Shown here in pieces: positions 12,836 to 34,085 of a stretch of DNA of 64,000 bases. Positions within the stretch are counted from its first letter, which is position 1, and the number at the start of each line of letters is the position of its first letter. The stretch lies in the NCBI GenBank assembly GCA_963783645.1, contig CAWAOH010000019.1, positions 1,738 to 65,737 on the forward strand, read 5' to 3'. The notes under the pieces were generated by a model that saw only the letters and a program-made list of their open reading frames with translations, was not told where the DNA came from and made no database searches. Both the position numbers and the translations under genes were made by a program. The DNA is from Candidatus Bathyarchaeota archaeon (GTDB taxonomy: Archaea > Thermoproteota > Bathyarchaeia > 40CM-2-53-6).

Positions 12836-14535
12836 ATGGCCGCCGCGACGCCTACGTTAGATTTCAAGCACTCTCTACGACGAATGTTTCTGTACGGTGC
12901 GATAGGCGGCGTTATTGCGACGCTCATCCAGTACGTAGGAGCGGTTGCTTCAGCCTTCCCTTTCCGCCCGTAGAGATCTTCAGAATTATACTTGCGCCCG
13001 TGCCCGGCTCGTTGCAGTCGGTTGCAGTTGAGAACCTTGGTGAATACGCGAAGTACGGCGCAGTTCACCTTTGCCACTGCGGCCTATGTTCTGTTGTATG
13101 GGTTAATCGGTGCTTCCTTGGGTGCGCGGTCTCGTGAGCGTATGCTCTCGAAACCTTGGGCACTTTTGTTTTGCATTGTACCAACGATCGTGGCCTTCGC
13201 GTTCGAGTTCGAGCTGGCGCCTAGCTACTCTTCGCTCTCATCCTTGGCGGGTTGGTTGCTTGCTGTAGGTCTCATTATCGTTGCAAACATCTCATTCACG
13301 GGAACTTTCATGGGATTAATGAATTTGGAGCATGAACACATGTTGACTTCGTCCCCCGTTCCGGCAACCGGGTTACCGCGCCGAGGATTCCTCAGGAAAG
13401 CTGCTGGTCTGGCTTTTGTTGTGGCTGCCGCCGCAGCTTGGCATTAAGCTTGGCTTATCAGTTCTTTCTGGTCAACCAGTTGTGGGAACTAGCAACCCGA
13501 TCCCAGTGAATCCTGAACCGTCGACAACAACCATGACCACGAGTACTGCCGCGGCTTCCACGTCCACCGTTGCGGCTACATCAACATCGTCCGGGCTTGC
13601 TCCGGTTTTTGCGGATCCGAGAATCAGCGACCTCGTCAAGTCGGAGGTCACGGATAATCGAATCTTTTACCGCGTAGACATTGACCCTGATCCACCTGAA
13701 CTGGATTTTGACAGTTGGTCCCTGGCGATTGACGGCAAAGTTTCGAATCCCAAGACGATCAAGAAGGCTGACATCCTGTCTCTGCCAACGACGGATGAAT
13801 ACGTGACCCTCGAGTGCATCAGCAACACCATCAACCCGCCGGCGGGACTCATTAGTAACGCTAAGTGGACGGGAGTACCTCTTGCGATGCTTCTCAATCA
13901 GGTTGGCCTTCTGCCCGAAGCAAAGTACATTATCTTTCACAGCGCGGACGGTTACCGCGTGGGGATACCCGTTGAGCGAGCCATGCATCCTGAAACAATC
14001 TTAGCTTACAAGATGAACGATGATTTCCTGCGTCAAGAGCATGGTTTTCCTCTCCGCGCGATCATCCCAGGAATCTATGGGATGATGAACGCCAAATGGA
14101 TCACTCAGATTACGGTTGTAGATTACGTCTACTTGGGATATTGGCAAACTCGAGGATGGTCGAATGATGCCAGGATCAAGACAACTTCAATCATCTACTA
14201 CCCATCTCGTCAAATCAGCGGGGAGCAGATCAACGTCGGTCCAGATGGCTACGTTCCCGTAGCCGGAGTTGCCTTCGCGGGCGACCGGGGCATCAGCAAA
14301 GTGGAAGTAAGCACGGACGGAGGGAAAACATGGAACCTGGCATACCTGAAACCTCCAACCTCCCCATATCTCATGGGTTCTCTGGGCGTACGAGTGGACC
14401 CCGCCAAGCAAAGGTCAATATCAACTCATCGTGAAAGCAACCGACGGAACTGGCACATTGCAGAGCGGAGCTACAACTAACCCGTTCCCATACGGCGCGA
14501 CAGGATACAATTCGCTAAACGTCTACGTTACATAG
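12836..14535 (+). CDS. Membrane-bound sulfite-oxidase-family molybdopterin oxidoreductase (frameshifted)
   Basis: N-terminal TMs, RRGFL, FYRVDI, TLECISN, NAKWTGVPL, HGFPLRAIIPGIYG, GYWQTRGW and PFPYGATG. Confidence 0.9.
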
Positions 14536-14702
14536 AGTCAGCAGGTATGCCCCTAGAGCCCCAGAGATAAAGCTCACCGCTAGGCCGAGAAAACATCTTA
14601 CAGAAATTGAATGGAAAAACGTTACGTCTCTTTCGGAGTTTATAGAAGAAAAAGAAGGAGGGGCTACGATCGCTTTCGCGTTCGGACAGCGTCCCCGCTG
14701 TC

Positions 14703-17700
14703 TTACTTGCGTCTGCGTCGTAGTACGTATAGTGATGCTGCTAGTGCGGATACTGCTGCGATTGCTATGCCGCTGAATTCTGGTACGGGTATGTTGGATT
14801 GTTCTAGGTACATGTTTTGTCCTGTGCCAGTTTGGCCGCTTGATACGGCTACTGACCAGGTTTGTGATGCTATGCCTGGACTGCTGAGATGGTGAACTTG
14901 TACGTTCCTGGTGGTAGGTAGGCTTGGTAGACTGCCGTCGTACGTGTAGAAGTTCCAGGCCTGCTGCCGCCTTGTGCGCCCACTACGTTAACTAAGCCCC
15001 AGCTGAGTGGTCGGAACTCGTTACTCCAAGTGAACGCTAGAGCGTTGCCTGTCACTAATCCGTTCAGGTCGACTTCGAAGATTGCGCTTGCTTCACCACT
15101 GTTGTGGGCGTTGCTGATTTGCCAGACGCCTTCCTGCGAGTATGGACCTAGATGGTTCGGTGCCATGCTGTGTCCGACTGCGAATGGTATTGCTGTATTC
15201 AGAGCCATGTCTTCTGTTAGGCTGATGCCTGACTTGGCTGTGGTTCCTGGGATGATGTGGTATGATTCACCCATCAGTAAACCTGCTACTGGTGGATAGT
15301 AGTTCGGTGTTTGCTGGTGCACATCGTGAAGGCTGGCATTGCTGTGGCTGGATCTTGATAGTAACTGTTCCAGTAGGTACAATGTATGAGTTCATACTGG
15401 GAAGCCGCCTGGTACAAAGGTTTCGATGCTTGGAACGTGTTCGGCGATGCATGTAGGTTGTGACGCCGATTCCTTCGAAGCAGTCTGTTCCGGTGTTGTT
15501 GGCGTACCAGTTGACGAAGTCTACTTCAGCGGTCCATCCGCCTTGGTAGTCTGGTGCACCGAGGATACCCGTAGTTCGGGAAGTAGCCTGGATTATTCCA
15601 GTTCATTCCTGGCGCAGCGTAGCATGCTAAGTCGAATTCACAGAATCCGCCAAAGACTGGATCTCCAGAAGTATGTTTCCTTGTTGTAGTACTCGTTTAC
15701 TCCGCCGTTCTGTCCTGCTGCTGGTACTTGTGGTAGTCCTGCCATGAGGACGTGAAGTTCAGTCACCCGCCTGGCAAGTAATTGTACGAGTTGAGTAGCT
15801 TCGGGAATGGAATGTTTCCACCCTGTCCACCATTAAGCAACGGAGGTCGCAGCTCCATTGACTGGGTCTCCCATGTTGCCGAATGGATACTGGGTTGTTC
15901 CGTCAGCGGCTCTTGCGAAGCCGTTGCCTGTTACGTATGTGCCTTCGCTCGACATCCATTCAGCGACTAAGTTGCCTGAGTCGTCGAATAGTCGAACTCT
16001 AGCGGACATGTTGCCGTCGGTTGGTGTGATGATGTGTTCTTTCTTGAAGAGTATGTCCAATGTTACGTTGACGCCGATTACTAGGTTGATTTTCATGTCG
16101 GCGACTTGGCCTGAGTTGCCGTATACTGAGTAATCCTTGTCCTGGACGTATCCGTAGGTGTAGGCGTGTAAATCGTACTGTTCGTTGACTGGAAGTGCGG
16201 ATGGGTACAAGTTAATGTATCCAGTTAATGCGGAACTGTACATTCCACCCACCCTGCCTCCTCCGAGGCCGGCTTGGGTTGCGCTGTAGTGACATACTGC
16301 GTTCCCGTTGAGTTTCGTCGCTGTCAAGAGGTAAGCCCATGGGCCACCTGTGTAGCCTCCTACAAAGCCGAGACGGCTAAGTTCTTGTCCGAAGAACGCG
16401 TCGTTGCGAGTTTCCGTCGTAGGCGATGTACTTTTGTGATGATGGGTCAAGGTATAGTGGGTTCCATCCACCACCGCACATTTGGACAAAGCTTGCTGTG
16501 TCATTCTGGAATAGGCAGACTGGTTGGTGTCGTATCCGCCATGTTACCTACCTCGTCGCTGATGAAGTCGACGAGGGTGCCGTTGTTGTAGATTCCGATG
16601 TCAATTTCTTGACCAACCATAGGTTCGCATCGAGTCAGGCATTCCGTGGGCAGTGGCTAAATTTGGGTGTACGGTGGGACTTGGCCAAAGCCGTTACCTG
16701 GTCAGTGCCGTTCCGCCGTGTGTGAATCCTGCGCCCCATGGGTATGGTTGTTGTCCTGAGCAGTAAGTGTCGGGTGCGGCTGGATTGTTGTTAATTGGGA
16801 AGTTCGGCATGTCCCGATGGCAGCCATTAACGTGGTAGGCCAACTAAGTCCGTAGCCCCATTGGCCCCAGACCCAGTTTCTGCTAACGCGTGGTCGTTCC
16901 CAGTCGATGCTGTAGACTGTAAGGTTGAAGCCTGCGCCTCGGTATACGTGGTCGCTGATGCTGGTTGGGTTACCGCTGAGTGTTACTGATACCCATTCTA
17001 CTGGAGCTGCTTCAATGTAGCCGAGTACGAAGACGTGTGGTTGGTATGTGCCTGAGGGGATGCCGTAGTTCTCTCCGCCCCAAGTGTCGTTGAAGCCCCA
17101 GAACTGAATGTTCGCGCGACCTGTATTGATGGCGTGCTGGTTTAATCCTGCCGTGTCGAGGTGGTTGCCATGCTGGAACTCTCCGTAGGCGAAGGATGCT
17201 CCTTGCCAGTCAGTATATTTGCCCTTCGTGTACACTGCGCCGTGAAGAACCATTAGAACCGATTGAACCACCGGTTCGGGCAGTCGAATAGCCTCTAGCC
17301 GTAGTAGCCTTCGCAGCCGAGTAGTGATTGGTTGTATGACCAGACTATGCCGTTCGCGTCAACTAGGACTCCGGACATTACTCCGGCGCCTGTGTCGATT
17401 GGGTCTTCAGTAATGCCGTTGATGACGTTGTGGAAGTGAACAGTCTTGTTCACCCAGCTTGATAGGCGTAGGTCGATTGGTAGTGTTACGTCTCCAGCCC
17501 ACTCGTTTGGTGTTACGTCAAAGTAGTATTCTTGGAAGGTGCTACCGTCCAAGGCGGACTGTACGTAGCGGAAGGTCCACGCACGAGCGTAGTATCTTCC
17601 TGGGGTTAAGCCGTTAACCCAAGTAGCGTAAACTTGCGGAACCATTCCGTCAAGGTCTCTTGGGGCACCGTACTCACCCTTAACACCGAACTCAAAGTGG

Positions 17701-19402
17701 AACGGAATCGTTGTACCGCCCTGAACGAACCAGTGTTGTGGAGGACCAACTCCCTGTGGATCTTGGAAGTTGCTGGTTGTTAGTAAGTATCCTGGTTCCG
17801 AGTCCGTTGGCCACGCTTGAGACTTGGTAGAATGACAGTTGGTCCTGACGTTGTACTGTCCGTATCCGTTCCATGGTACGTATTCGTGCCATGGGAAGGC
17901 AATGTTAGCTCCTGTTCGTGGGTCGGCGCAGTATCCTGCGTCACGCCTGTCGTAGAACATTTCTTGGCCGCCCGCTATACACGGAAGTGGGGACCAGGAG
18001 ACCATGTTAGCGCTGGGGTCTGGGATGTGGTTGAGTGTTGGAGCGTCGTATAGTTCAATCTTAATGTATTGACCAGTTGATATTAGCTGGTCCTTGACAT
18101 ACACATTAGGTGGTCGCCTGTCATGCGTTAAGCATTGTACTGATACGGCCATGGCTCATCACCGAACTGGTGCTTGGTGAACACGTTGCCGTGAATCACT
18201 GGACCAGGTTGTAGGTAACCATCGAAGTGCAAAGACTGACCTTTCAACACAGTGAAGCCTGACTGGACAAGCGTCTGCGGATAACCAGCCGCTGATGCGT
18301 ATAGGTCGTAGACTCCTGGCGCTAAGCCTTCCACTTCGTAGTGGCCTGCGGCTGTTGCGTTGAAGTATCCGACTGCATCGACGAGCGGTAGATCCGGACG
18401 TTGCTGACCAGTGTATGGGTCAAGGCGAGTAGTCATCTTGGCCCAAACTTTACCAGCTTCCTGGATTGGTTTGCTGTATAGGGTTTGGTTATAACCAGCG
18501 TACCGGATGGTTCCGGTTATGATGGCTGGATCAATCTCACCCTTCACAAGCATAACCGGCCAGTTCTGTGTTGGGAGGAACTGAGTCGGACTCATCCCGA
18601 CTTTTAGTGACGAAACTGTATCTGTGCTTACTCCTTCGGCTCCGCCAAGATAAGACGCACCGCCGTTGATCAGGAGGATCTTGAAGAAGTATCTGCCCGC
18701 GGTGGTTGGAGCGGTTACTCCGTTGATTCTAATGTAGTACCATTCTCCGGCTGATGTGAACGAAATGCGCTGATGGTTGTAGTACGAAGACTGGAGTGGT
18801 GAGTTTCCGCTTTGGCCGCCGTCAGCTGCGATAAACACTACATGCCATCCTGGAGCATAACGGTCGAATGGTGAGCAGTATTGACAGTAATTCCCGAGTA
18901 GTCGTTCGTTAGAGTAGAGACGACCTGCGAAGCGTCAGGGACAGTGAAGTTTGATGGGATGTAGATAGCTATGTTATCCCAGGTACCCATGTAGCCGTAT
19001 GTTGCGTTGATGGCGAAGATGAGGTCACCAGTTGATCCTGTGAGTACAGCTCCGAATGGCGCATACGCGTCACTCTCAAGCTGATACCAGGAACTGCTCG
19101 GCGATTGCCGAACTGGTTGTTCCCGGCGCGCTCGCGGGCTTTCCGCCCGGATAGGGTGATTGATAGCCTGGTCCACTATTGACGCTCGCAAAACTTGGGG
19201 AACCTCCCCATGTGTTTTGGCCGCCTCCTGGCCAGACATACCCAATAACCCCTGGGACGTGGGGGTCGAAGTCATTTGCATGGTACCGATAGGTGCCCGT
19301 TAGGTCACCTAAGGTGAAGTGAGCCGACACCGGATTTACAATAGCAAACGTACTAATTGCGAAAATCGCGATTGTCAGCACTGCAGCTAATTTCTTATGC
19401 AA
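14703..19402 (-). CDS. Giant (~1550 aa) secreted surface / S-layer-like protein with PEF-CTERM sorting signal (many frameshifts)
   Basis: TTG start with signal peptide HKKLAAVLTIAIFAISTFAIVNPVSA; consecutive ORF fragments with carboxypeptidase-regulatory-like domains (GHYEVEGLAPGVY); C-terminus NIPVPEFSGIAIAAVSALAASLYVLRRRRK. Confidence 0.85.
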
Positions 19403-19652
19403 TTTTATTTTTTCCTTTAATTGTGTTATGCGTACGTGAATACGCATACAAGTCAGGATGGCCATCTGATCGTATATAAGGCGGAGTGTTGGATTCCGAC
19501 ATATCAAAGAAATCGCGAAGATGTCATCCTGAACTCCATCAAATTTCAGCACATGAAAAACTCGGACCCAACTCGAAGAGTCATGTCGATTAAGAGCTCA
19601 ACAAGGGATGAATCAACGGTAACCCTAATTTGGCACGCCTATATACCACGCC

Positions 19653-21824
19653 ATGGCCATTCTATTGCGCCCAGCACCCCTAGTCCTCATTCTACTAGTC
19701 TTCCTCCCACTACTGGCCACTAGCGTAGGAGCACAACGCACGCCACACTACGTGGTGCTCTATGCTCATTCGTACGGCGATACCGCAATCCTAAACGCTC
19801 TTCCGCAGTGGTCAGGACAAAAGGCGGCTGACATCAGCAAAGGGATCACATTCCGACTCAATCCGGTACTTGGAGATAATTTGCACATTTACGGAGGCAT
19901 CACTTTCACGCTCTACCTTCGAGCCAGCGCTAGCTTCTTCGGAACCATAGGAATACAAGTTTCAGAACTCTCGAAAGACGGTAAAGAGACGTTAGTTCCC
20001 AACGCAAAAGCACCGGACAACCCGCTCACATTAGACACGAGAACAGTACCAGTCACATTCGGAGTTGGAATCGTAGACTACGAGTTCCAATCTGGCTCAT
20101 CGATACTTCTTCGCATCGGAGTTGATCAAGTATTCAAGCCCGGAATACCACTCCTAGTCTGGGACGACACCACTACACCAACGAGCCTAAGGCTACCAGC
20201 GATCTCTCCAACGAGGGCGCAACTGCAATTCATCGGACACCCAAGCTTCGGACACATATTCGAAGCAGACGGCGAGGGCAATCAGACTGTAAGAATCGAC
20301 GCGAACGTCAGGGACACGATCGGAGTCTACCGCTTCCAGTCCGTAGCCTTCAAACTAACAGCGCCCAACGGAAATATCACCACTGTCCAAATGAACCCGA
20401 GTAACAGTACCGATTACTCAAGTCTCTACTCGACTACCGCCGAGCTGAGTCAGGGTGAATGGCAGATCGGTTTCGTGTTACGTGATTTGGCAGGGGATAG
20501 TTACGAGTTTAACGACAATTTGTGGGTGACACCCTTCTACCCTGTTATGATTCAGGTAGTTGGGTCGGACGGTGTCAGCCTCCAGCAGGCGACTTTGAAC
20601 GTTACGTTTGGAAATAACGCTGCTTGGACTTCCTTGACAAATCAGACAGGCTGGGGCATCCTTTCTCTTCCCTCAAGTCAGATAGTGGGACCCCTAAACA
20701 TTACTATTCGTTGGTTAGGAACCGAGACCCTGTCTTCTCTGGACATCGTGGGAACTTCGCGATTTCTCTTCACAATCCTAGTTTACAATCCAGCTGTTCG
20801 CGTAGTCATGAACGGTCTGCCAGTCCCGGTTGCCCACGTGACTCTCTACCAGTTCGGGGTGGTACAACAGGGGTACACTGGAATAAACGGGGCCGTCAAC
20901 TTCAGGACGATACCTGCAGGAAACTACACTGTTCGCGTCGATTATCTTTTCGCGGCCTATGAAGCGCCTTTGAGCGTACACGCAAACGATGTGACCACAC
21001 TTTCTGTACCTTTACCACATAGGACAATTCTGCTTGTCTCGACGCTCGTCCTTATTGGACTCGCAACAACGCTAGTGGTTCGAAGAAGACGCGGCAAACT
21101 CTATCCGCGAAGCTTCGAATATTTCAATGAGATAACACATGGTGGTCTCCCTGACGCCTGTTTCACGGTCATCGTTGGCGACTCTGGTTCCGGAAAGAGT
21201 GTCTTGTTGAACTCTCTTGCCGGAGAACACTTGGCTTCGGGAAAAGCGATCTACGTAACTAACACAGAGTACCCTGAAAAAATCCGCGAAAACCTAGTGA
21301 AGCTTGGGGTATGCAAGAAAGAAGACGTACAGCAGGATAGACTGATCTTTATAGATGCTTATTCCGCAGTCGGGGGAAGCTCATCGAAAGAGGAATTTTC
21401 AGTAAGCTCCTATACTGATATGACGACTCTGGGTTTGAACATAAGCAAGTGTCTCCAGATTGTTGGACCAGGAGCGGACGTTTACTTAGATTCGTTAGCC
21501 GCGTTGATCACGGTGCTGCGTATTGATTACTTGATTAATTTTCTTCAATCAGTGGCTGCCAAGGTGAAGGCGAATAATGGGAAATTCTGCGTGACAATTG
21601 GGTCGGGCATCGAGAAGAAGGATATGACTAAGCTTGAGGAGACTACTGACTGCGTAATTGAGACTCAACTTCAGGAATCCGGCAGTGGCCAACGAAGGCG
21701 AATGCGGATTAAGAAACTCAGGGATAGACCCTACAATGACCATTGGATACGCTTCCAAGTGCAGGAGGGTAAAGGAATCATACTCCTCACGAATTCCAAA
21801 CCTGACAATTCATCCAAGGTCTAA
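19653..21824 (+). CDS. Ectodomain + single TM + cytoplasmic KaiC/RAD55-like ATPase
   Basis: Signal peptide, ~430-aa beta-rich ectodomain, TM followed by RRRRGK, then GGLP, Walker A GDSGSGKS, FIDAY, VYLDSL and RRMRIKKLR. Confidence 0.9.
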   Translation: MAILLRPAPLVLILLVFLPLLATSVGAQRTPHYVVLYAHSYGDTAILNALPQWSGQKAADISKGITFRLNPVLGDNLHIYGGITFTLYLRASASFFGTIGIQVSELSKDGKETLVPNAKAPDNPLTLDTRTVPVTFGVGIVDYEFQSGSSILLRIGVDQVFKPGIPLLVWDDTTTPTSLRLPAISPTRAQLQFIGHPSFGHIFEADGEGNQTVRIDANVRDTIGVYRFQSVAFKLTAPNGNITTVQMNPSNSTDYSSLYSTTAELSQGEWQIGFVLRDLAGDSYEFNDNLWVTPFYPVMIQVVGSDGVSLQQATLNVTFGNNAAWTSLTNQTGWGILSLPSSQIVGPLNITIRWLGTETLSSLDIVGTSRFLFTILVYNPAVRVVMNGLPVPVAHVTLYQFGVVQQGYTGINGAVNFRTIPAGNYTVRVDYLFAAYEAPLSVHANDVTTLSVPLPHRTILLVSTLVLIGLATTLVVRRRRGKLYPRSFEYFNEITHGGLPDACFTVIVGDSGSGKSVLLNSLAGEHLASGKAIYVTNTEYPEKIRENLVKLGVCKKEDVQQDRLIFIDAYSAVGGSSSKEEFSVSSYTDMTTLGLNISKCLQIVGPGADVYLDSLAALITVLRIDYLINFLQSVAAKVKANNGKFCVTIGSGIEKKDMTKLEETTDCVIETQLQESGSGQRRRMRIKKLRDRPYNDHWIRFQVQEGKGIILLTNSKPDNSSKV

Positions 21825-21837
21825 CTCCGGGGAGTTC

Positions 21838-22419
21838 ATGCAGAATGCCAAAAACAAGGGAAGGCTGCAACGGTTGATTTCCAGAATCGCAATCGGCGCA
21901 AGTCTACTTGCCTGGATTCTGCTTATGTTTTCCACCAATTCTGTAGCATCTGCATCACTCTGCCAGTTGATTAACGTCGCATCCACCTATCCTCACCAAG
22001 CGTTACCTAATCAACAGATTCAAGTGAGCACAAATGTTGCTGGCTCTTGCGCCTCTAACGGCGAGGACTATTTCGCGGTCAGGGTTGACTTGGTGGATAG
22101 ACTGTCGAATTCTATGCCTTCATCAAATAGTGTTCCAGTAGGATACAATGCGAAGAACTTCTCAGTAACCGTAGAGAACCATGCTGTAACTCCACATGAG
22201 AATGTGACTTGGCCGTTGGAAATTGACGTCTACGTACTCGAATCAGGTGGACTAGCGGGAAAATACTTGCTTACGGTCGATAACGCAACAATACAAGTGG
22301 GCAACATGTCCATGCCCGAGTTTAACCTCGCCCCTAGCTCCGTGATCCCCCTCACGTTGCTTGTTACCGTATTGGTAATACGTCAACGCAAAACTATGCA
22401 ATCTCGGCGACGGAACTAA
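21838..22419 (+). CDS. Secreted protein with PEF-CTERM-like tail
   Basis: Signal peptide; Cys-bracketed domain as in 10028; MPEF + TM + basic tail. Confidence 0.8.
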   Translation: MQNAKNKGRLQRLISRIAIGASLLAWILLMFSTNSVASASLCQLINVASTYPHQALPNQQIQVSTNVAGSCASNGEDYFAVRVDLVDRLSNSMPSSNSVPVGYNAKNFSVTVENHAVTPHENVTWPLEIDVYVLESGGLAGKYLLTVDNATIQVGNMSMPEFNLAPSSVIPLTLLVTVLVIRQRKTMQSRRRN

Positions 22420-23204
22420 CTCCGTCGCTTTCTGAACATTACCAGTATTATTCCTGCTCCTGCAATCACAACCAAGGCTGCAGGTAACCAATTCATGAAA
22501 GCGTTCTCTGAACTGAACGACGTTGGAGTAGATGTGACTGCAGGTGTTTGAGTCGAGAACACGAGGTTAGTATTCTCAATGATGCTGGTTGAGGTGTAAG
22601 CTACCGTCTCGCTCTGAACAGTTGGAGCATAATCCTCGGCAGAGTATGAGACGTAGCCACCGTAGAAAATTCGTGAAACAAACACTAGCGCGTACTCACC
22701 GCTCTCAGGGACAACCCATTCCACATTGGATGATGGGCCATATACGCGAAGCATCGAACTCCGTAAGCCGTAACCACAATTAGAATGCTCGAAGCTGTAG
22801 AATTGGCCCTTGTTAAGAATAAGAAAAACGATTCCTCTACCTACCATTGATAACTCGAAATGGCCTCTAATTATGTGACCCGCTGTCGCATTGAGGAGGA
22901 AATAGTCATAGAAGAGGCATGAATAGTCCACGTCAAAGTCAAATCGGCCGCCACTCGCCCCCACCGTATACCCCAGGGAGAAAGAACCTGTTCTTTTATC
23001 ATAGCCAGATGGCGTCAGATCGTATTGAGCCGACTTCGAGGATGTAGCTGTCGTCAGAATCGTTGAATACGCAGTCACGGTCGAACTGCTCGTGGAATAT
23101 TGGCTGCTGGTTATGACAGTTTGACTCACCGCCAATTGTGGAGTGACTAACGTGACAAGTACCGAACAGGCCAACAAGAGGCTCAACATAGTCTTTGAGG
23201 TCAT
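22416..23204 (-). CDS. Membrane-anchored Ser/Thr-rich secreted protein
   Basis: Signal peptide, S/T linkers, WVVPESGEYALVF beta domain, C-terminal TM and RKRR. Confidence 0.75.
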   Translation of the reverse strand: MTSKTMLSLLLACSVLVTLVTPQLAVSQTVITSSQYSTSSSTVTAYSTILTTATSSKSAQYDLTPSGYDKRTGSFSLGYTVGASGGRFDFDVDYSCLFYDYFLLNATAGHIIRGHFELSMVGRGIVFLILNKGQFYSFEHSNCGYGLRSSMLRVYGPSSNVEWVVPESGEYALVFVSRIFYGGYVSYSAEDYAPTVQSETVAYTSTSIIENTNLVFSTQTPAVTSTPTSFSSENAFMNWLPAALVVIAGAGIILVMFRKRRS

Positions 23205-23677: not shown

Positions 23678-26587
23678 TTATCCGTTGCTTTCGCGTCTTC
23701 GTCTTGTGAGTACAAGGACTCCGACTCCGAGCAGCATACCTATCAGGACTGCTTCGATCGGGAACCCTGGTATTGGCGGTATCGCGAAGTCAGTCGAGTA
23801 TGAGGCCACGTACGTTGTTGGAGCATTCACCGTTAACGGGCCTGCGATAGCTCCCCCTGTTGCGTTCGTCCAACCAGAGAACTTGTGAATCATGTATCCG
23901 TCAATGACTGTTTGATTCAAGACCGGATTGATTGTCGTGCCCTTCTGGTACCACGTCCGGTATGCGCCATTCACGGACAGATTATAGGTTGCATTTTTCA
24001 AATTCATCTGGACAATTGTTGAGTTTGATATTCCGCTAACTTTGAAGGTTACCAAGTATTCCGTGTTCCATTTGGCGTTCAGTGTCTTTGGGTCATTCAC
24101 GCGTAGTGTCATGTTGGATGATGATCCGGTGTAGTCTCCTGTCCAACCCGCGAAAATTCTCCGCGTAGAGTTAGCATAGTCAATCTCCCTCTGAATGTTG
24201 ACTGGAACGTTTGATCCAGCATCGTACCAGCCTCCACCTAGAGAGGTTCCGTAGGCGGATTGAATGTTGACCAGGTACTGAGTCTTCCATCCTGCTTGCA
24301 GGGTTGTCGGTGAGTTCACGGTGATTTGTGTGTTAGGATTCCTCCCAAGCGCAGTTGAATTCCAACCTGTGAATACGAGTCTAGTTGCGTTTGAGTATTG
24401 GACGGTTGATTGCACACCAACCGTAGCAATTTGTCCAGCATTATACCAGCCACTACCGGTGGGCGAGCCGGTTGATGAGATTATGGTCACGTAGTATTGT
24501 GTAATCCAGTTTGCTTTCAACGATACCGGTTTCGTCATGTTGACCTGTAGATAGGTTGAGTTTGAACTCATGTCCCCGCTCCACCCGTCAAACAATAGGC
24601 GGGAAGAATTCGCTGTCACGTTAGAAGGATCAGAAGCGGATACTACGACAATCACCTTTGGGTCATACCAACCGCTAATCGAAGTCGAACCCCCGTTCGA
24701 ACTTATCGACAGTAAATATTTTGTTGCGAAAACAGCTTGGATGACGGTGTTGGAGGTAACCGTGATTTTGCGAGGATTCTCTAAGCTACCGTCCGACCAT
24801 CCTGCAAATTGTTGCCTAACCCCTAGCGAAGTATTCACGGCGGGTTGAATTTGCACGGTGATGTTGCCTGCGGACACGCTCGTTTGCAATTGCCCCGAAG
24901 TCACATTATACTTCACGCCATTGATTGAGACCCAAACGTTACCGTTGGAGGTCACGTTCAATGGAACATTGATTGTAAGCGTGGGACCCACATTCACGTT
25001 GAAAGTCGCAACGTTATTCGCCCTGTTGGTATCGTTGATCAAATGGTTCGGGTCGATAGTTATCTGGAACACGTGGCTGCCAACTACTGAAACCCACGTG
25101 AAACTGGTCTGAGTTGAAACGCCAACTCCAACGCTTACCTGAGTATTCGTGTAAACGCTACCGTCGAGTTTCACTTCAACCTGCGCGTCAGTTACATCTT
25201 GAGTACCGAGGTTCGATATTTGCACGGTGACCGTCACATTAGTGTTCGGACTCGTGATGACTACGGGCTGTGAGTCGATATTGGTTATTGCCAAGTCGAT
25301 GTACGATGTTTGGTTTTGGATTGGTGGAGGAGGGGCGCCACCTCTGTTTACTGTAACCTGATAAGAGTTACCCGTTTTGCCGGTTACGGTTACGGCGATG
25401 CCGTTTTTGCTGTCCGTGAACGTTTGACCCACGTTCCACACTGCGTCCTCCAACGCGGGAATGCTTGGATGACCATCCATAACATGGACTCTGCCAACGA
25501 TAGCTGTATTGTCAACGTACGTTATCAGGACCCCAGCAGCCGGTAACGCAGAGTCGAATCCAATTGCTGCTCTAACCTCAACCAAATAATATTGGCTCGG
25601 AGTTGTTGTGCTCCCGATTGGAATCTGGACCGCGTGAAGGTTACTGGATGCAACTTCAGTTGGGTCAACTGTGTAAGTGGTTGTTGCGCCGGATAATGCT
25701 GTTGTGAGCATTGATCCAGAGATGAAGCCTAGCTGGATCTTGTCCCAAGCGGACATGTGTGCTGGGCTCGAGCCGGCCGGGTCACCGTTCCATAGTCCTT
25801 TGTCCATCAGCTCCCAAGGTCCAAGTATTGTTTTGCCGTTGAGTGTGTTGTAAAGGTCGGGGAGTCCTAGCTGGTGTCCAAATTCATGAGCATACACACC
25901 TATCGGTACTGCGCCGCTAGCTTCAAGCTCGGGCACAATTTGGAATTTTGTGAGCGTCTTCGTACTGGTGCGTACGTAGACTCCCCCCAGGTACGTTACA
26001 GACCAGACATCGTCCTTGACTCCACTAGACTCTTCTCCATATCCTGAGTGAATGAATACGTAGTAATCATAATTCGAGAAATTTATACCCTGGTTCTGTG
26101 CCGTGGTCGCTGCATCACTCGCGATCTGCCAAGAGGCATCCGAGCCACTGCAATCGGCATCATCAATCGAGGTGCAGTCTCTTCCATAATGGGACTCTGG
26201 ATACGGAAGCTTGTACCATCCAGCCACATCTCCCTTCAGTGTAACCGAACCGTACGAAATTTCTTGATAGTAAGAGCCTACTTGACCAAAGAATTCTTGC
26301 TTCAACGTATCAGTGCTTACCGTGTAGTTGATGTCGGAGAAGTAAGCCGCGATCACTAAGACTCTTAAGATACCCGAAACCGGAGCCGGGCGAGCAATGT
26401 ACCCCGGCGTAGGGGTTGGTAATGGCATCGAGGGGCTTGGTGCAAAAACCGCAATTGGTCCGCTATTCGACGTGCGTACAGGCGACACCCAATTCGGGGC
26501 TAATAGGATTGTGAAAAAGATGAGCGTCAGGAGTAACCGCTTATTCAGTATGAAACCAAACATGTTCTCGTCGACCGAAGCTTTCAA
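23678..26587 (-). CDS. M6 (immune inhibitor A-like) metalloprotease with CARDB and GW repeats and a PGF-type C-terminal anchor
   Basis: HEFGHQLGLPDLY, WELMDKGLWNG, IDPN..INDTNRANN (CARDB) and PIPGFP + TM + RRRR. Confidence 0.92.
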   Translation of the reverse strand: MKASVDENMFGFILNKRLLLTLIFFTILLAPNWVSPVRTSNSGPIAVFAPSPSMPLPTPTPGYIARPAPVSGILRVLVIAAYFSDINYTVSTDTLKQEFFGQVGSYYQEISYGSVTLKGDVAGWYKLPYPESHYGRDCTSIDDADCSGSDASWQIASDAATTAQNQGINFSNYDYYVFIHSGYGEESSGVKDDVWSVTYLGGVYVRTSTKTLTKFQIVPELEASGAVPIGVYAHEFGHQLGLPDLYNTLNGKTILGPWELMDKGLWNGDPAGSSPAHMSAWDKIQLGFISGSMLTTALSGATTTYTVDPTEVASSNLHAVQIPIGSTTTPSQYYLVEVRAAIGFDSALPAAGVLITYVDNTAIVGRVHVMDGHPSIPALEDAVWNVGQTFTDSKNGIAVTVTGKTGNSYQVTVNRGGAPPPPIQNQTSYIDLAITNIDSQPVVITSPNTNVTVTVQISNLGTQDVTDAQVEVKLDGSVYTNTQVSVGVGVSTQTSFTWVSVVGSHVFQITIDPNHLINDTNRANNVATFNVNVGPTLTINVPLNVTSNGNVWVSINGVKYNVTSGQLQTSVSAGNITVQIQPAVNTSLGVRQQFAGWSDGSLENPRKITVTSNTVIQAVFATKYLLSISSNGGSTSISGWYDPKVIVVVSASDPSNVTANSSRLLFDGWSGDMSSNSTYLQVNMTKPVSLKANWITQYYVTIISSTGSPTGSGWYNAGQIATVGVQSTVQYSNATRLVFTGWNSTALGRNPNTQITVNSPTTLQAGWKTQYLVNIQSAYGTSLGGGWYDAGSNVPVNIQREIDYANSTRRIFAGWTGDYTGSSSNMTLRVNDPKTLNAKWNTEYLVTFKVSGISNSTIVQMNLKNATYNLSVNGAYRTWYQKGTTINPVLNQTVIDGYMIHKFSGWTNATGGAIAGPLTVNAPTTYVASYSTDFAIPPIPGFPIEAVLIGMLLGVGVLVLTRRRRESNG

Positions 26588-26718: not shown

Positions 26719-29026
26719 CTAAGCCACGGCTCTTGCGACGCCTAGACTAGTGGCGATAGGTATCAGGAACATGTTGCACAGCAACAGTAAGACTTCTGCT
26801 ATCAACGCAAATGGTTGCACGATTGCGTAAAGGAAGCTGGCTACGAGAAGCCCTAATGAAACCACCCACAGCCCGACTAGCGGAATGAGCCACAGGAAGC
26901 TAGGTCGACGATGACTTGTCGCGGCTCTTAACACCGCTACCGCTGCGCTTACTGGAAACACATAAACGAAGCCAACTAGGAAACTTCCGATAATGTAACC
27001 GATTAGTGGCGAACCTCCGGGAATTACGAACACAGTGAGGCTGTAACCCAAGGTCATCATTGTGCCTGCTAGCGTCAGGAGGGTGGAAGCGTATGGAACT
27101 GCATGGACCACATCCTCGACGCTTCTCATTATCTGCGTAAGCGAGTCTGACGTACCGATGATTGGTACCGTTGAGTCTACGATGCGAATGTTGACGACTT
27201 GTGATGCCGATGAGTGCTCTGAGTCACCTGGCCAGTACGCTTTCAAGTAGTAGCTACCTGGCTGAGTGAATGGGTATGCGTAGGAGAATGTTCCGTCCGG
27301 CGAGACAGATACATCTGCTATACGCTGCCAGTTTACATTATTCAGGCTGTAGAGTAAACTGATTGATTTTGATTCAGTCGATATTCTCTGGATTGAGCCA
27401 GTTATCGAAAGTGGGATTCCTGGTGCTGCCACAGTGGGCCACACCTGCAAGTTTACGTTGATGCTATCTTTTGGGACGCCTGTGAAGATTACTGCCACAT
27501 CAACTGGTTTTGTGATGGTTAGACCACCCGTCACTGTCTGGTTATCTACTCGTAATCCGGAGTACACGTAGTTGGTTGTGGATTGTTGGATCTGTGTGCT
27601 TTGAACATTAATCGAAAGAGACGCGTTTTCGTCGACCCACAGTATGTATGGAGCAGACCCGTTTACCGTGACGATAGAATTCACAACCGAGATTTGGGCG
27701 CTGGCATTGTCTGGCAATCCGACGGGCGTTACGGTCACCTTGTATTGTGTCGTCCACAAGGCGGTAACCTGCCTTGCTGAATCCATTACTGTCCATGTTT
27801 GATTGGAAGTTGAATTGGCGTCTCCCTGCCATTTTTCGAATACCATCCTAGTTCCGTTTCCTGAATCAACCTCGCTCGGTACACCGAAGCTCTGCGTTGG
27901 CACCCCTAGCGTACCAGCCCGCACCAATTGGGGCACCGTATGGAGTTGCGATCGTGAGTGAATATTCCTTCGTGTAGTTACCGAAAATGTCCAGTGAGGA
28001 GTTAAGCTGCAAGCTTAACGGGTTGGCTGATCCGAATTTGCTCCACGAAGAAAAACGGAGTCTGGAACTGCCAGAGTTTTGGATTTCGGCAGGGACTTGG
28101 ACGTTAACTCGCCCGCTCGGTACACCTAGCGAAACCAATCCACGGTCGTTGGTTTGAAACGGAAAATCGTCAACTAGGACGGTAAGGTTTGACTGTCCTG
28201 TACGGACCGTTACTTGATTGGAGAATGACCCTTTAATCCATCTCGCGGCGACCGTTCTTCCATCAAACTTTCTGTAATCGTTCAGTCTCAGCTGGTGCTC
28301 GACGATTACGTGGTATGCATCATTATTCTGCATGTAAAGAATGGCAAAGTAGTAGTTTCCCGCCCGGTCGGTTAGTAGAGACCAAACCTCATTGTAATCC
28401 GTTGATCCGCCGAAGAGTTGATTGACGAGAGGATAAATGGTCAGCAGCGTCGTACCATTGTACAATTGTCCACCCCTTTGAGTAAGGTAGAGATCTGGCC
28501 CAAGAGCGGAGAGGGCGTTAGTTACCTCCGGGGCTGCGGGAATCTGTAGTTTTGGCATGTCGACAGATACGGTTGTTACGGTCCTGTTGAATACATGCTG
28601 TGCGCCTTGAAATGTCCAACTATTGATATTTCCGCTTTTGTAGTCGAACCATCGAAGGAGGAATGGCATATCAGTTGAATTTCTAAGGTAGAGAAAACCG
28701 ATTCCGAAATCCGTCTGAGTCACGTTCGCTAAGAAAATTATGTAGATTCGGCCCTGCGACCATTGGGCTGTGGCGTAACCCCATGGCATCAGTGTAATTG
28801 CTCCCAAGCCGTTAATTGACAAAGTAGCGCCTTGAGGGGAGGCACGAAGGGTATAGCCTTCACTTGTTCCTCCAGCGTAGAAATCTATGACTTGATTTCT
28901 TGCGGAAGCATTAGGTAGAGGTACAGTAACAAAAGCTGTCTGTGCACGGACGCTTGTTATGTTAATGCCTACGCCTACGATAAGGAGAACGGCGAATAAC
29001 ATAGTAACGGCTACTCGGTTGATCAT
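26719..29026 (-). CDS. Secreted multidomain protein with GW repeats, Ig-like domain and multi-TM C-terminus (frameshift near 27900)
   Basis: Signal peptide; GAGWY repeat; YYLKAYWPGD Ig-like domain; several C-terminal TMs. Confidence 0.75.
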
Positions 29027-29217: not shown

Positions 29218-29697
29218 ATGAAGTCCGTGCGGTACCTACTCGCAGTGTCATTGTTCGTCGCACTAATGCTTCTGAGCAGTAAACTCGTTTTAGCCCAACC
29301 TCACCCTAACCAATACTACGGGTCAGGTGGCGGAATGATAATGGGAACAATCTTAGGATTCAACATGTGGGATCAGTTAGAACCTGTCGATTGGGCTTCT
29401 GTGTACGCTAACAATGGTCAGCACACTTTTGTGGCATATTCCAGTGCGGGCGGTTTCTATGAGATGTTCGTGCCCACTGGCTTGTATAACGTTACCGTCG
29501 TGCAGCCCGGATACGTCAACTACAGCAATACTGTCTCTGTATCTGACGGGTCAACGAGCAGGATAAACTTCACGCTAGAGCTATCGCACGTACCAGTTCC
29601 GGAATTCCAACCAAACTTCACACTGATGGTGATGATCCTAACGCTTGGCGCAGCCCTCGTAGTAAGAAGACGATCTCTAAAGCGCTCAAAGACGTAG
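29218..29697 (+). CDS. Small PEF-CTERM protein (carboxypeptidase-regulatory-like domain)
   Basis: Signal peptide; GFYEMFVPTGLYNVT; VPVPEF + TM + RRR. Confidence 0.85.
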   Translation: MKSVRYLLAVSLFVALMLLSSKLVLAQPHPNQYYGSGGGMIMGTILGFNMWDQLEPVDWASVYANNGQHTFVAYSSAGGFYEMFVPTGLYNVTVVQPGYVNYSNTVSVSDGSTSRINFTLELSHVPVPEFQPNFTLMVMILTLGAALVVRRRSLKRSKT

Positions 29698-29818
29698 CAT
29701 TCGACGTGTAGATTCAGACTGCGTCCATTCTCCCCTGTTTATTACGTTCCTGGCATCGATACTTTAGAGTGTGAGTATTCATGCTCTTTTGCGAAGACTG
29801 CTGTTCCCACAGTGATTC

Positions 29819-30367
29819 TTGATGAGTGAAACTATGGTCGCCACTGTAAATCGGTTGCAACTCGCTTTGAATGCAGGCCGATTCATGGTAATAGCATCGA
29901 CCATAGCCATCGTGCTGTACTACTTGCCCAACTACTACCTATACGAGAAGCTCGTCGCAGAGAACTCCGCAATTTTGATGCAGCTGATCGGCATCAAGTC
30001 AACTATTTGGACTCAAGGGAACCGAGTGTTCCTTAACGAGTTCGAGATTCAGCGAATGTGCACTGGGGTTCAGGTCATGGCGGTCTTCCTTGGCATTCTT
30101 GTGGCTGTTCCAAAGGTTGCGTTGAAGAAGAGAATTCTCGTATTCAGCGTTGTTGCGGTAAGCGTTCACATGGCTAACATAGGACGGATTGCGTTTGAGA
30201 TATGGCTTGTCTATAACGGAATCCTGCCCTGGTCACTCGTGCATTATCCGACAGGATTGATACTGGGAATCTTTTCAGTTGCATTCTTAATTGTCGCGGC
30301 TGATTATTTCATTCCACAGATAGGCGACATGGCATTTTCATTGATTGACGGCCCCAGAGCCCGGTAG
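29819..30367 (+). CDS. Archaeosortase / exosortase family protein
   Basis: Polytopic membrane protein with FEIQRMCTG (Cys), ANIGRI (Arg) and SLVH (His); adjacent to a PEF-CTERM gene. Confidence 0.85.
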   Translation: MMSETMVATVNRLQLALNAGRFMVIASTIAIVLYYLPNYYLYEKLVAENSAILMQLIGIKSTIWTQGNRVFLNEFEIQRMCTGVQVMAVFLGILVAVPKVALKKRILVFSVVAVSVHMANIGRIAFEIWLVYNGILPWSLVHYPTGLILGIFSVAFLIVAADYFIPQIGDMAFSLIDGPRAR

Positions 30368-32944: not shown

Positions 32945-34085
32945 CTAAAAGATGAAGAAGCAGAAGACGAGCATAGTCAAGGCTACACCAAACAAGGCCT
33001 TTCTGAAACTCGAGAGAGGGGACACGTCATCTAGAGGCTCGACACCTTCAAGCGGTTTGCGGCTAATCAACATGAAGATGATTAGTAGTAACGCGAATCC
33101 CCAGTAACCGGCCAGAAAGAGGACGCCAAACCCAAGCAGAGCAATTACTTTGTGGCCCTTATCGCCAAATGTGGCGCGGTGCAATGTGCCCGCCATCCAA
33201 CTGCCAGACTGGAAGAATGTTCAGGAACGTAATCAACGCGCCAACTTCAGCAGCGAAGGCAACTTGTGTCAGAACCATGACTTGTCCCGCAGGTACAATT
33301 CTGAACCCGATGTTGCTCAGTACGTCAAGTAATAGTGGCTCATTCGGCCAGCTGTTGACCGAAAGAAGATTAGCCTTCAGTAACAGCTGTGCCTGTTGTC
33401 CACTTATTAGCGGAGCTGTCAGATACGCGAATAATGCAACAATAATCGTTGCAAGGAAACCGGCAATAGGTCCGCTAAATCCGAGATCGAATAACTGGTC
33501 TCGGTTGCCTGGCGGCCCACGAAGAGAAATAACGGCCCCAAAAGTTCCGAAAGGAAATGGAGGCGGAGCAGGCACAAAGTATGGTAGAGTTCCATCCATC
33601 TTGTGGTGTCGAACGGCCAGCACATGTCCCAATTCGTGTATTCCAACAATACCAAGGATTGAGACTGCAAGAATCACGACCTGCAATACAAGATTCGATC
33701 CGGAGAAGAGCGCCCGTGTCAACCTAGGGTCAACGTCGAAAATCAGCGTGTAACTTGCGAACCCGACGCTCGCTATCGTAGCCAAGAATAGGATGAGATT
33801 GATGCTGAGACGTGGTTTGCGGAGATTTGGTTTCGGGAACACTGAGACAACTAGCTTGTCTGCCACTCTCTGAATCCGCGCAGTGAGATGATGGTTTCGT
33901 AGATCCAGGAGCAATTCTTGGAATTTCTGCTTGATCGGTTCCTCTGCGACCACAAATGCAGGTAACCCATTAACGTCTACGTATGCATCTTTGATGGTAA
34001 ACCGGTATTCTAGCATTGATCGGATTGAACCGAAATCGATTGAAAATGTGGGCAGAGAGCTAGTCGATGGCGGTGATTCAGACAC
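32945..34085 (-). CDS. Site-2 protease, M50 family (frameshift near 33175)
   Basis: HELGH, LPYFVP..GTFGA, GPIAG and NILPVWQLDGGH. Confidence 0.92.

Follow-up and report, generated by a model that had tools for sequence, protein, structure and literature searches.

The stretch of DNA analysed here, called the window below, comprises 64,000 nt of contig CAWAOH010000019.1 from a Candidatus Bathyarchaeota archaeon. On its forward strand it carries a gene, designated TM-KaiC, which encodes a transmembrane (TM) protein with a KaiC-like ATPase domain. TM-KaiC is a type-I membrane protein with an exported stalk, composed of one jelly roll and three beta sandwiches, and a cytoplasmic KaiC/RecA domain. 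The protein looks like a hitherto undescribed connection between the envelope and the inside of the cell. Archaea have many KaiC-like ATPases, for which a role as signalling hubs has been proposed. To our knowledge, how they receive signals is largely unknown, and few transmembrane receptors have been recognised in archaea. The gene and its parts are as follows.

19653..21824, + strand: TM-KaiC gene, 723 aa, ATG start, intact (open reading frame (ORF) calling, homologs, and gap-free DNA contigs)
19653..19733, + strand: signal peptide (aa 1-27), likely cut after VGA (predicted cleavage)
19740..20207, + strand: ectodomain D1 (aa 30-185), a jelly roll that resembles the C-terminal domain of PepX/CocE hydrolases
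20211..20777, + strand: ectodomains D2 and D3 (aa 187-293 and 295-375), beta sandwiches in the AlphaFold2 model
20793..21005, + strand: ectodomain D4 (aa 381-451), CarboxypepD_reg-type sandwich
21006..21098, + strand: juxtamembrane VPLPHRT, TM helix (aa 458-476), and RRRRGK, from sequence and conservation
21102..21791, + strand: KaiC/RecA-like ATPase domain (aa 484-713) with Walker A at 509-516, catalytic E539, Walker B D613, and K688

The reading frame at 19653-21824 (+) starts with ATG and runs through 723 codons without an internal stop. Proteins encoded elsewhere match TM-KaiC over its full length at 98% and 92% identity, and DNA contigs of two other metagenomes match long pieces of the gene with 0 indels (8 mismatches over 1431 nt and 18 mismatches over 1848 nt). 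The gene is therefore real and intact. At the N-terminus of the protein, residues 3-21 are hydrophobic, and in 30 homologs Q28 is invariant and A27 nearly invariant, which fits a cleaved signal peptide. An AlphaFold2 model of the window protein, built on an alignment of 30 homologs, had a mean pLDDT (predicted local distance difference test) of 83.4, with most of the ectodomain above 85. Residues 32-451 were modelled as beta strands only, in four modules (~30-185, 187-293, 295-375, and 381-451). After them the model has a helix (459-472) and then an alpha/beta domain of RecA-like fold (484-713). A first-pass annotation of the window had proposed an uninterrupted 723-aa ORF with a signal peptide, a beta-rich ectodomain, a TM helix followed by RRRRGK, and a RecA-fold ATPase with an intact Walker A. 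This description was borne out by the ORF, the AlphaFold2 model, and the match to the Pfam KaiC family PF06745.

PF06745 matched residues 489-713 with 72 bits against a gathering cut-off of 26.6 (E 6.4e-20). The domain contains Walker A (GDSGSGKS, 509-516), Walker B (D613-S614), the catalytic E539, and the basic finger K688. Among 31 family members, the Walker A Lys, the Walker B Asp, and K688 were found in 31/31, and the catalytic residue was acidic in 26/31 (E in the window). In structural comparison with VIA-align, the ATPase fold matched PH0284 (2dr3) with Z 24.4 (root-mean-square deviation (rmsd) 2.8, 220 aligned) and SSO2452 (2w0m) with Z 23.8; further matches were FlaH/ArlH (4yds, Z 22.0; 4wia, Z 21.6) and KaiC (Z 21.8). 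TM-KaiC belongs to the KaiC/RecA-like ATPase domain family by Pfam cut-off, motifs, and RecA-like fold alike. PH0284 and SSO2452 were the best matches to residues 487-715 both in structure and in sequence (profile E 7e-12), and they share with TM-KaiC one RecA-like domain, Walker A, Walker B, the catalytic Glu, and the basic finger region. They are soluble proteins of ~230-250 aa, whereas in TM-KaiC the domain is preceded by a signal peptide, an ectodomain of 430 aa, and a TM helix. A scan of the genome contigs with a generic Walker A pattern gave 7 matches, all of them unrelated P-loop proteins.

The conservation of these motifs bears on the idea that TM-KaiC is mainly a structural anchor or stalk of the surface layer, with a KaiC domain that serves as a platform for oligomerisation or docking and has no ATPase function. 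The gene lies amid genes for anchored surface proteins, and the non-ATPase Foldseek matches of TM-KaiC are the multi-domain adhesin/stalk proteins 6fwv and 6m48, at low TM-scores. In addition, proteins of the ArlH type are reported to have shown no ATPase activity in standard assays (10.1101/2021.03.19.436134). The invariant Walker A Lys and Walker B Asp, together with an acidic catalytic residue in most members, speak instead for a nucleotide-dependent function, and a protein that only anchors would not require a conserved soluble ATPase as its partner, such as the one described below. We consider a mainly structural role improbable.

Cyanobacterial KaiC is a member of the same domain family. 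In the HMMER alignment, TM-KaiC residues 485-711 fall on the CI half of KaiC, where the 'EE' pair of CI faces E662/E663; HMMER gave no usable alignment of TM-KaiC to the S431/T432 loop of CII. Positions 662/663 are mostly E/E in the 31 members, and the two residues after them are variable (A, S, T, V, and others). With the register taken from the CI alignment, these 31 members have no conserved Ser/Thr acceptor at the S431/T432-equivalent loop. The first-pass annotation had noted that the phosphosite positions are acidic. E662 and E663 are indeed acidic, but their alignment with the CI pair makes them a CI-like or family-wide trait and not a demonstrated phosphomimic, so the argument built on phosphomimicry does not hold in the form given. 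The identification of TM-KaiC as a circadian KaiC was rejected, as it has a single domain, carries E662/E663 with no conserved acceptors of the S431/T432 type, and scores 30.3 against 546.25 with TIGR02655 (circ_KaiC) and 56.7 against 408 with NF006799 (PRK09302).

ArlH/FlaH resembles TM-KaiC in being a KaiC-like single domain, and its place of action is the membrane, where it cooperates with another ATPase; it differs in having no TM helix or ectodomain. ArlH is reported to autophosphorylate, which changes its oligomerisation and partner binding; the residues at KaiC-equivalent positions are not its phosphosites, and a Thr pair by the catalytic Glu was tested as the next candidate (10.1101/2021.03.19.436134). 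In the window TM-KaiC, T536-N-T538-E539 sits at the place of this Thr pair and catalytic Glu. TM-KaiC was rejected as an ArlH on the basis of the NCBIfam model NF052589 (48.4 against 215) and because no ArlI/ArlJ occurred among the recurrent neighbour clusters scanned.

On the exported side, VIA-align matched D1 to 8yzn (Z 16.5, rmsd 2.3, 147 aligned), 6nff (Z 14.7), 4pf1 (Z 13.7), and 3i2f (Z 12.1). In a protein atlas, Bathyarchaeota clusters of 741 and 730 aa matched TM-KaiC with scores of 0.99 and 0.98, and one of them had been automatically named with the PepX C-terminal domain. D4 gave 30.9 bits with PF13620, slightly below the cut-off of 32.3, and matched 3e8v with Z 13.0 (VIA-align). 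Pfam recognised no ligand-binding family in the ectodomain, and a local BLASTP search (E up to 0.1) found no similarity of the ectodomain to the M6 protein or the giant protein encoded nearby. DUF7504 (PF24336) scored 23.5 on the window protein, below the gathering cut-off of 27 that most homologs reach.

The topology was evaluated in a neighbourhood set of 36 loci, that is, 35 loci from other genomes and the window, in which ORFs were called and clustered. The loci were taken with 8-10 kb on each side, and several stop at contig ends. By inspection, all 36 family members have a hydrophobic stretch and then a Lys/Arg cluster, ~30-43 residues N-terminal of Walker A. In the window protein, 7 N-glycosylation sequons fall within the ectodomain and 2 within the cytoplasmic part. 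The basic cluster directly after the TM helix and the bias of the sequons towards the ectodomain place the ATPase inside the cell, in agreement with the first-pass annotation, and the exported stalk is predicted from these sequons to be glycosylated. Next to the membrane, V452, P453, P455, H456, and T458 are invariant across 30 close homologs.

Two other types of membrane sensor or kinase were considered. TM-KaiC gave no HisKA or HATPase_c Pfam match at E up to 0.01 as a two-component sensor histidine kinase. Wzc-type BY-kinases offer an analogy: they are anchored in the membrane, have an exported domain and, in the cytoplasm, a P-loop autokinase that forms rings, and are encoded in surface-polymer loci. 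Bacterial loci of the Wzc type also occur with exosortase systems. The P-loop fold of these kinases is MinD-like, their exported domain is helical and lies between two TM helices, and they carry a C-terminal Tyr cluster. The assignment of TM-KaiC to them was rejected, because it has a RecA/KaiC fold, a beta ectodomain, and no C-terminal Tyr cluster.

Makarova, Galperin and Koonin reportedly proposed in 2017 that KaiC-like ATPases linked or fused to input and output domains act as archaeal signalling hubs. In the available excerpt of PMC5847659, fusions of KaiC with REC and HalOD1 and fusions with inactivated KaiC are described, and this excerpt mentions no form of KaiC with a signal peptide, an ectodomain, and a TM helix. 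Judged by title and the opening lines of the abstract, no paper retrieved by literature searches describes such a fusion.

The distribution of the family was determined by several searches. A word-index search listed 79 clusters as TM-KaiC matches; among these, 76 carry PF06745, the identity is 50-98%, and the source labels are Bathyarchaeia, bar one 'Methylomirabilota'. An exhaustive phmmer search with the ectodomain alone against 1.84 billion representatives returned 64 at E up to 0.001 and 22 at 1e-30. The KaiC domain was C-terminal in 30 of the 34 scanned ectodomain-bearing representatives (>=450 aa); the other four (465-517 aa) lack KaiC and may be truncated. The fusion is encoded in all 36 loci examined, and it is the rule in the family. 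The first-pass reading of a true fusion, and not of two genes, thus holds, with one split case in another class (genome G240, see below). The window protein has the architecture of the family, namely a signal peptide, a PepX_C-like D1, beta sandwiches, a TM helix, a basic cluster, and KaiC.

In a class-wide sample, the family was found in 49 of 201 genomes, the window's included, at E up to 1e-30. It was present in 46 of the 51 other genomes of the window's order versus 2 of the 149 outside it. Within the window's genus, 18 of 22 other genomes carry the same ectodomain type at 28-74% identity. A phylum-wide sample gave matches in 17 of 401 genomes, and long frames with a C-terminal ATPase were seen only in the same class and in genome G381. 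The family is almost wholly within one Bathyarchaeia order.

TM-KaiC has a companion in most of these loci. A soluble KaiC of ~250 aa (PF06745, 202 bits) was present in 25 of the 36 loci and immediately adjacent in 20. In an order-wide sample it was adjacent in 18 of 20 cases (17 tail-to-tail, with 2-26 nt between, and 1 co-directional). The canonical motifs are all kept in the soluble protein, and its identity to the reference copy is 57-96% in 24 of 25 other alignment rows; the copy of locus L061 is divergent, at 40% identity to the reference copy. In a maximum-likelihood tree, the 36 TM-KaiC ATPase domains fell on one side of a branch supported by values of 99/93 (UFBoot, ultrafast bootstrap/SH-aLRT, Shimodaira-Hasegawa-like approximate likelihood ratio test), and the soluble partners formed a separate group (100/99). 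The TM-KaiC and soluble-KaiC subtrees have terminal groupings in common. Judged by these sequence comparisons, the soluble KaiC is a dedicated, highly conserved partner of TM-KaiC, and the two form a conserved pair. The first-pass annotation had called TM-KaiC a 'one-component' receptor; this term is unsupported, since the conserved soluble KaiC accompanies TM-KaiC in 25 of the 36 loci.

The three parts of the pair differ in mean pairwise identity, which is 62% for the soluble KaiC, 46% for the TM-KaiC ATPase, and 29% for the ectodomain. Forms of ~586-640 aa lack D2, or D3 and D4 (the ~626-aa variants have no counterpart of D2), and one form has 1009 aa. Such variation is one of the points in favour of a free-standing outside-in receptor, in which the ectodomain would bind a ligand or sense envelope stress, the KaiC domain would transmit to a general KaiC network, and the surface genes would be mere neighbours. 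The ectodomain evolves fastest, and its domain number varies by clade (~586-1009 aa for the protein), as in sensor families. D1 has a jelly-roll fold, and jelly rolls often serve binding. Moreover, the window and the closest relatives keep TM-KaiC intact though apart from the partner operon, and the window's genome has four further KaiC-domain genes. The adjacency to one particular soluble KaiC and the common terminal groupings argue instead for a dedicated pair, no Pfam ligand-binding family lies in the ectodomain, and no output is known. A free-standing receptor is accordingly an unlikely explanation in our opinion. Of the receptor idea in the first-pass annotation, the architecture, the topology, and the envelope setting stand; the one-component status and the phosphomimic argument do not.

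Related genes were also found in three genomes outside the class. In G381, from another class (locus L110, 4484-6979, +), a soluble KaiC of 260 aa is followed by a 557-aa protein with ~five N-terminal TM segments, a C-terminal KaiC, and no ectodomain. In the tree, the TM-KaiC clade has the KaiC domain of this 557-aa protein as its nearest neighbour (99/90), while the 260-aa partner falls with the soluble KaiCs. By this placement, the pairing of a membrane-bound with a soluble KaiC is older than the ectodomain fusion. In G240, from another class of the phylum (locus L109, 398-7495, -), the homolog of ectodomain and TM helix is a separate gene (530 aa, 146 bits to the family profile); downstream of it are genes for a KaiC-like protein of 245 aa, two T2SSE ATPases, and a T2SSF platform protein. 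The homolog in G301 is ectodomain-only (701 aa) and lies amid unrelated genes.

The G240 arrangement, together with the fold matches to FlaH (Z 22.0 and 21.6), could point to a derivative of type-IV-filament or archaellum accessories, that is, an ArlH-like KaiC fused to an exported stator-like protein, with the secretion ATPase encoded elsewhere. This arrangement is that of a single genome. Pfam scans of representatives of the recurrent neighbour clusters scanned found no T2SSE or T2SSF match, and the ArlH model score given above is far below its cut-off. We give this origin very little chance.

In the relatives, the genes around TM-KaiC are largely concerned with the cell surface. An archaeosortase-family gene was found in 26 of the 36 loci; in 14 loci there is a thaumarchaeosortase-like archaeosortase (exo_archaeo signature, 45.8 versus 23), and in 15 a small archaeosortase-family protein. 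A PTPS_related multi-TM protein (730 aa) occurs in 14/36 loci and a GT87-like multi-TM protein in 12/36; PF10131 and GT87 presumably belong to the GT-C glycosyltransferases. Giant/CarboxypepD_reg proteins are present in 20/36 loci, the giants having 1400-1470 aa, and M6/surface proteins in 24/36. Three small anchored proteins, the neighbour clusters c6, c8, and c11, also recur. In loci L043 and L094, which are fully co-directional, the order is giant protein, TM-KaiC, soluble KaiC, c6, PTPS_related protein, GT87-like protein, c11, c8, and archaeosortase. Every member of this type of operon besides the two KaiCs is membrane or exported, and the two KaiCs are the only cytoplasmic nucleoside triphosphatases in that surface-protein setting. 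High-scoring orthologs of the operon archaeosortase (>=232 bits; next match 196) were found in 33 genomes, 31 of which have TM-KaiC. These comparisons suggest that in most lineages having the module it is encoded with machinery for making, glycosylating, and anchoring PEF-type giant surface proteins. The envelope link proposed in the first-pass annotation is thus upheld by the giant PEF-type surface protein, the archaeosortases, and the glycosyltransferase-like membrane proteins beside the gene in relatives, and it is stronger than the window alone could reveal.

Several observations were made on these neighbours. In alignment A2 (L043-L100) of the thaumarchaeosortase-like proteins, the Arg and His are invariant, and the column of the presumed nucleophile has Cys in 9 and Ser in 8 of 17; we take this column to hold the catalytic residue. 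The fold of c6, the conserved protein after the soluble KaiC, was modelled with a pLDDT of 82 as a beta sandwich between two TM helices, and as its best PDB match has only Z 5.6, no assignment is possible. In L044-L047 and L059, the KaiC pair lies beside a processive-type GT2 (530 aa) instead of the GT-C-like set. These loci also encode a nucleotidyltransferase/kinase-like protein of 550 aa and one or two 8-10-TM proteins of ~495 aa that match no Pfam family. When five genomes were searched with a single PTPS_related protein, without a positive control, there was no match.

The C-terminus of the giant proteins and of the 159-aa proteins is made up of '(I/V)P(V/I)PEF', a TM segment of ~20 hydrophobic residues, and an Arg cluster, and the M6 proteases end in 'PPIPGFP', a TM segment, and an Arg cluster, which corresponds to Loki-CTERM in NCBIfam. 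The geometry of the PEF-type ends is the same as that of TM-KaiC around its membrane helix. A pseudo-substrate or regulated-cleavage device might be envisaged, in which 'VPxPHRT + TM + RRRRGK' mimics the PEF-type signal and docks in, or is cut by, the archaeosortase or a nearby M50 protease (present in 7 loci), with release of the stalk or the ATPase. The motif, however, reads PHR and not PEF or PGF, and it is internal (aa 452-482), whereas known sorting signals sit at the C-terminus. A Pro-rich edge and a basic cluster are common among single-pass proteins. In addition, the juxtamembrane motif varies by clade without tracking the signals of the neighbours, and comparison by eye revealed no co-variation of this motif with the neighbours' PEF signal. 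Such a device seems to us scarcely credible. TM-KaiC as a true archaeosortase substrate was rejected, since its signature, TM segment, and basic cluster are not at the extreme C-terminus and contain no PEF/PGF.

The reading that we prefer, although tentatively and with somewhat less than even confidence, is that TM-KaiC supplies the membrane-bound half of a module of two KaiCs, and that this module is coupled to the biogenesis of surface proteins and acts as a regulator or checkpoint of their maturation. The ATPase domains would assemble into a ring flush with the membrane; a position directly beneath it would follow from the linker between TM helix and ATPase, which is shorter than ~10 residues. 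The assembly of this ring would be altered by the binding and hydrolysis of ATP and perhaps by autophosphorylation, jointly with the soluble KaiC. The single TM helices would couple the ring to the stalks, and the stalks would touch the surface-protein layer. In this way the module may connect envelope state with a nucleotide switch in the cytoplasm, and information could flow either way. We infer the ring, the nucleotide-dependent oligomerisation, and the autophosphorylation from what is established for KaiC, PH0284, and ArlH. By analogy, a ring of TM-KaiC with a ring of the soluble KaiC would resemble the CI/CII double ring.

A more specific version of the two-KaiC module, which we regard as possible but doubtful, is that TM-KaiC and the soluble KaiC form a membrane-tethered split double-ring KaiC that gates archaeosortase-dependent anchoring and glycosylation of the giant protein. 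Contacts of the stalk with the surface layer would be read as changes in ring assembly, ATP turnover, and phosphorylation, without a histidine or Ser/Thr kinase domain, and the juxtamembrane segment would dock on the archaeosortase. If true, the split double-ring KaiC would be a new class of archaeal transmembrane signalling device. More generally, TM-KaiC with its dedicated soluble KaiC and a defined surface-protein setting makes a concrete, testable case of KaiC-based communication across the membrane. Bathyarchaeia are an uncultured, globally abundant group, and the module offers a handle on the biogenesis of their envelope.

Several findings weigh against the coupling of the KaiC pair to surface-protein biogenesis. 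The analysis identified no output domain or regulator. Among the 49 TM-KaiC genomes, 18 lack the operon archaeosortase ortholog, including 11/11 sampled of the g2 genus and the window's genome, so the constant core is the KaiC pair, and the surface-protein machinery is a frequent and not a universal companion. The co-occurrence is confined to one order and may reflect shared ancestry and not function. In the window's assembly, which is 76% complete, no soluble-KaiC/archaeosortase operon was found, and profile scans of the whole assembly did not find the operon members c4, c5, c6, c7, c8, or c11. The only soluble-KaiC-like gene of this genome (C16, 255 bits) lies on another contig, outside the main partner clade, and has unrelated neighbours. 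The closest relatives, genomes G233, G220, and G223, carry the operon on a contig other than that of TM-KaiC. An adjacent soluble KaiC, otherwise a trait of the family, is absent from the window. The module is incomplete in the window, which has only TM-KaiC, a fragmented giant gene, and a downstream island of anchored proteins. The assembly amounts to 1.59 Mb versus 2.2-3.1 Mb for most other genomes of the genus. The genes that flank TM-KaiC in the window are listed below.

14706..19402, - strand: giant surface-protein gene, divergent from TM-KaiC, fragmented; its orthologs carry a PEF-type C-terminal anchor signal
21838..22419, + strand: small secreted protein, 13 nt past the TM-KaiC stop, ending in MPEF, a TM segment, and a basic tail
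22416..23204, - strand: secreted protein with a C-terminal TM segment and RKRRS, from sequence
23678..26587, - strand: M6 metalloprotease, 969 aa, with a CARDB domain and 'PPIPGFP + TM + RRRR', a PGF-like C-terminal sorting signal
26722..29026, - strand: surface-protein gene, which a single frame change near 27880 divides into ORFs of 405 and 386 aa
29218..29697, + strand: CarboxypepD_reg/PEGA protein, 159 aa, ending in VPVPEF, a TM segment, and RRR
29819..30367, + strand: small archaeosortase-family protein, 182 aa (exo_archaeo TIGR04178, 37.2 versus 23 bits)

The giant surface protein next to TM-KaiC had been reported in the first-pass annotation. By homology the gene is real and lies on the opposite strand, but here it is cut by at least five frame changes. 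A tblastn search matched 14706-19402 end to end to giant proteins of 1456-1473 aa across frames -3/-2/-1/-3/-2, and the frame changes break the gene into at least seven ORFs in this assembly. Contigs of two other metagenomes and two metatranscriptomes differ from the window at most of the breaks or close to them (14959, 14966, 15568-15573, 16519, 18068-18147, 19104, and 19121), either by indels of 1 nt or by the replacement of a 77-nt segment. The breaks may thus represent decay specific to the strain, or errors of the consensus in a region that varies. Over 14500-19572, short RNA contigs (77-150 nt, ~92-95% alike) from two peat metatranscriptomes reached a word depth of hundreds to ~47,000, so that giant-protein mRNAs of near relatives seem very abundant in those samples. 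On account of this depth over the giant-protein region, the class of giant proteins beside the module may be a major component of the envelope. In the two peat metatranscriptome contig sets, the TM-KaiC region (19573-21824) had a depth of 0-2, a value from contigs, which cannot show absence.

Downstream of TM-KaiC, homologs of the two small ORFs adjoin the partner operon in the closest relatives, that of the 21838-22419 protein in G233 and that of the 22416-23204 protein in G220. Both ORFs were rejected as soluble KaiC or core partners, as neither is a soluble KaiC and their recurrence is only sporadic. The position of the M6 protease is conserved within the genus, and the protein scored 30.2 versus 19.9 with the NCBIfam Loki-CTERM model; the relatives of this genome are named Bathyarchaeia. 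The counterpart of 26722-29026 in relatives is a single protein of 764-769 aa. Further downstream, at 33159..34085 on the - strand, lies a gene for an M50 (site-2-type) membrane protease, which has the same downstream position in 7 loci (cluster c13). The Pfam Exosortase_EpsH model gave no match in the window's genome. The 159-aa protein and the small archaeosortase are adjacent in 15 of the 36 loci, and this pair (29218-30367) looks like a minimal sortase-substrate pair.

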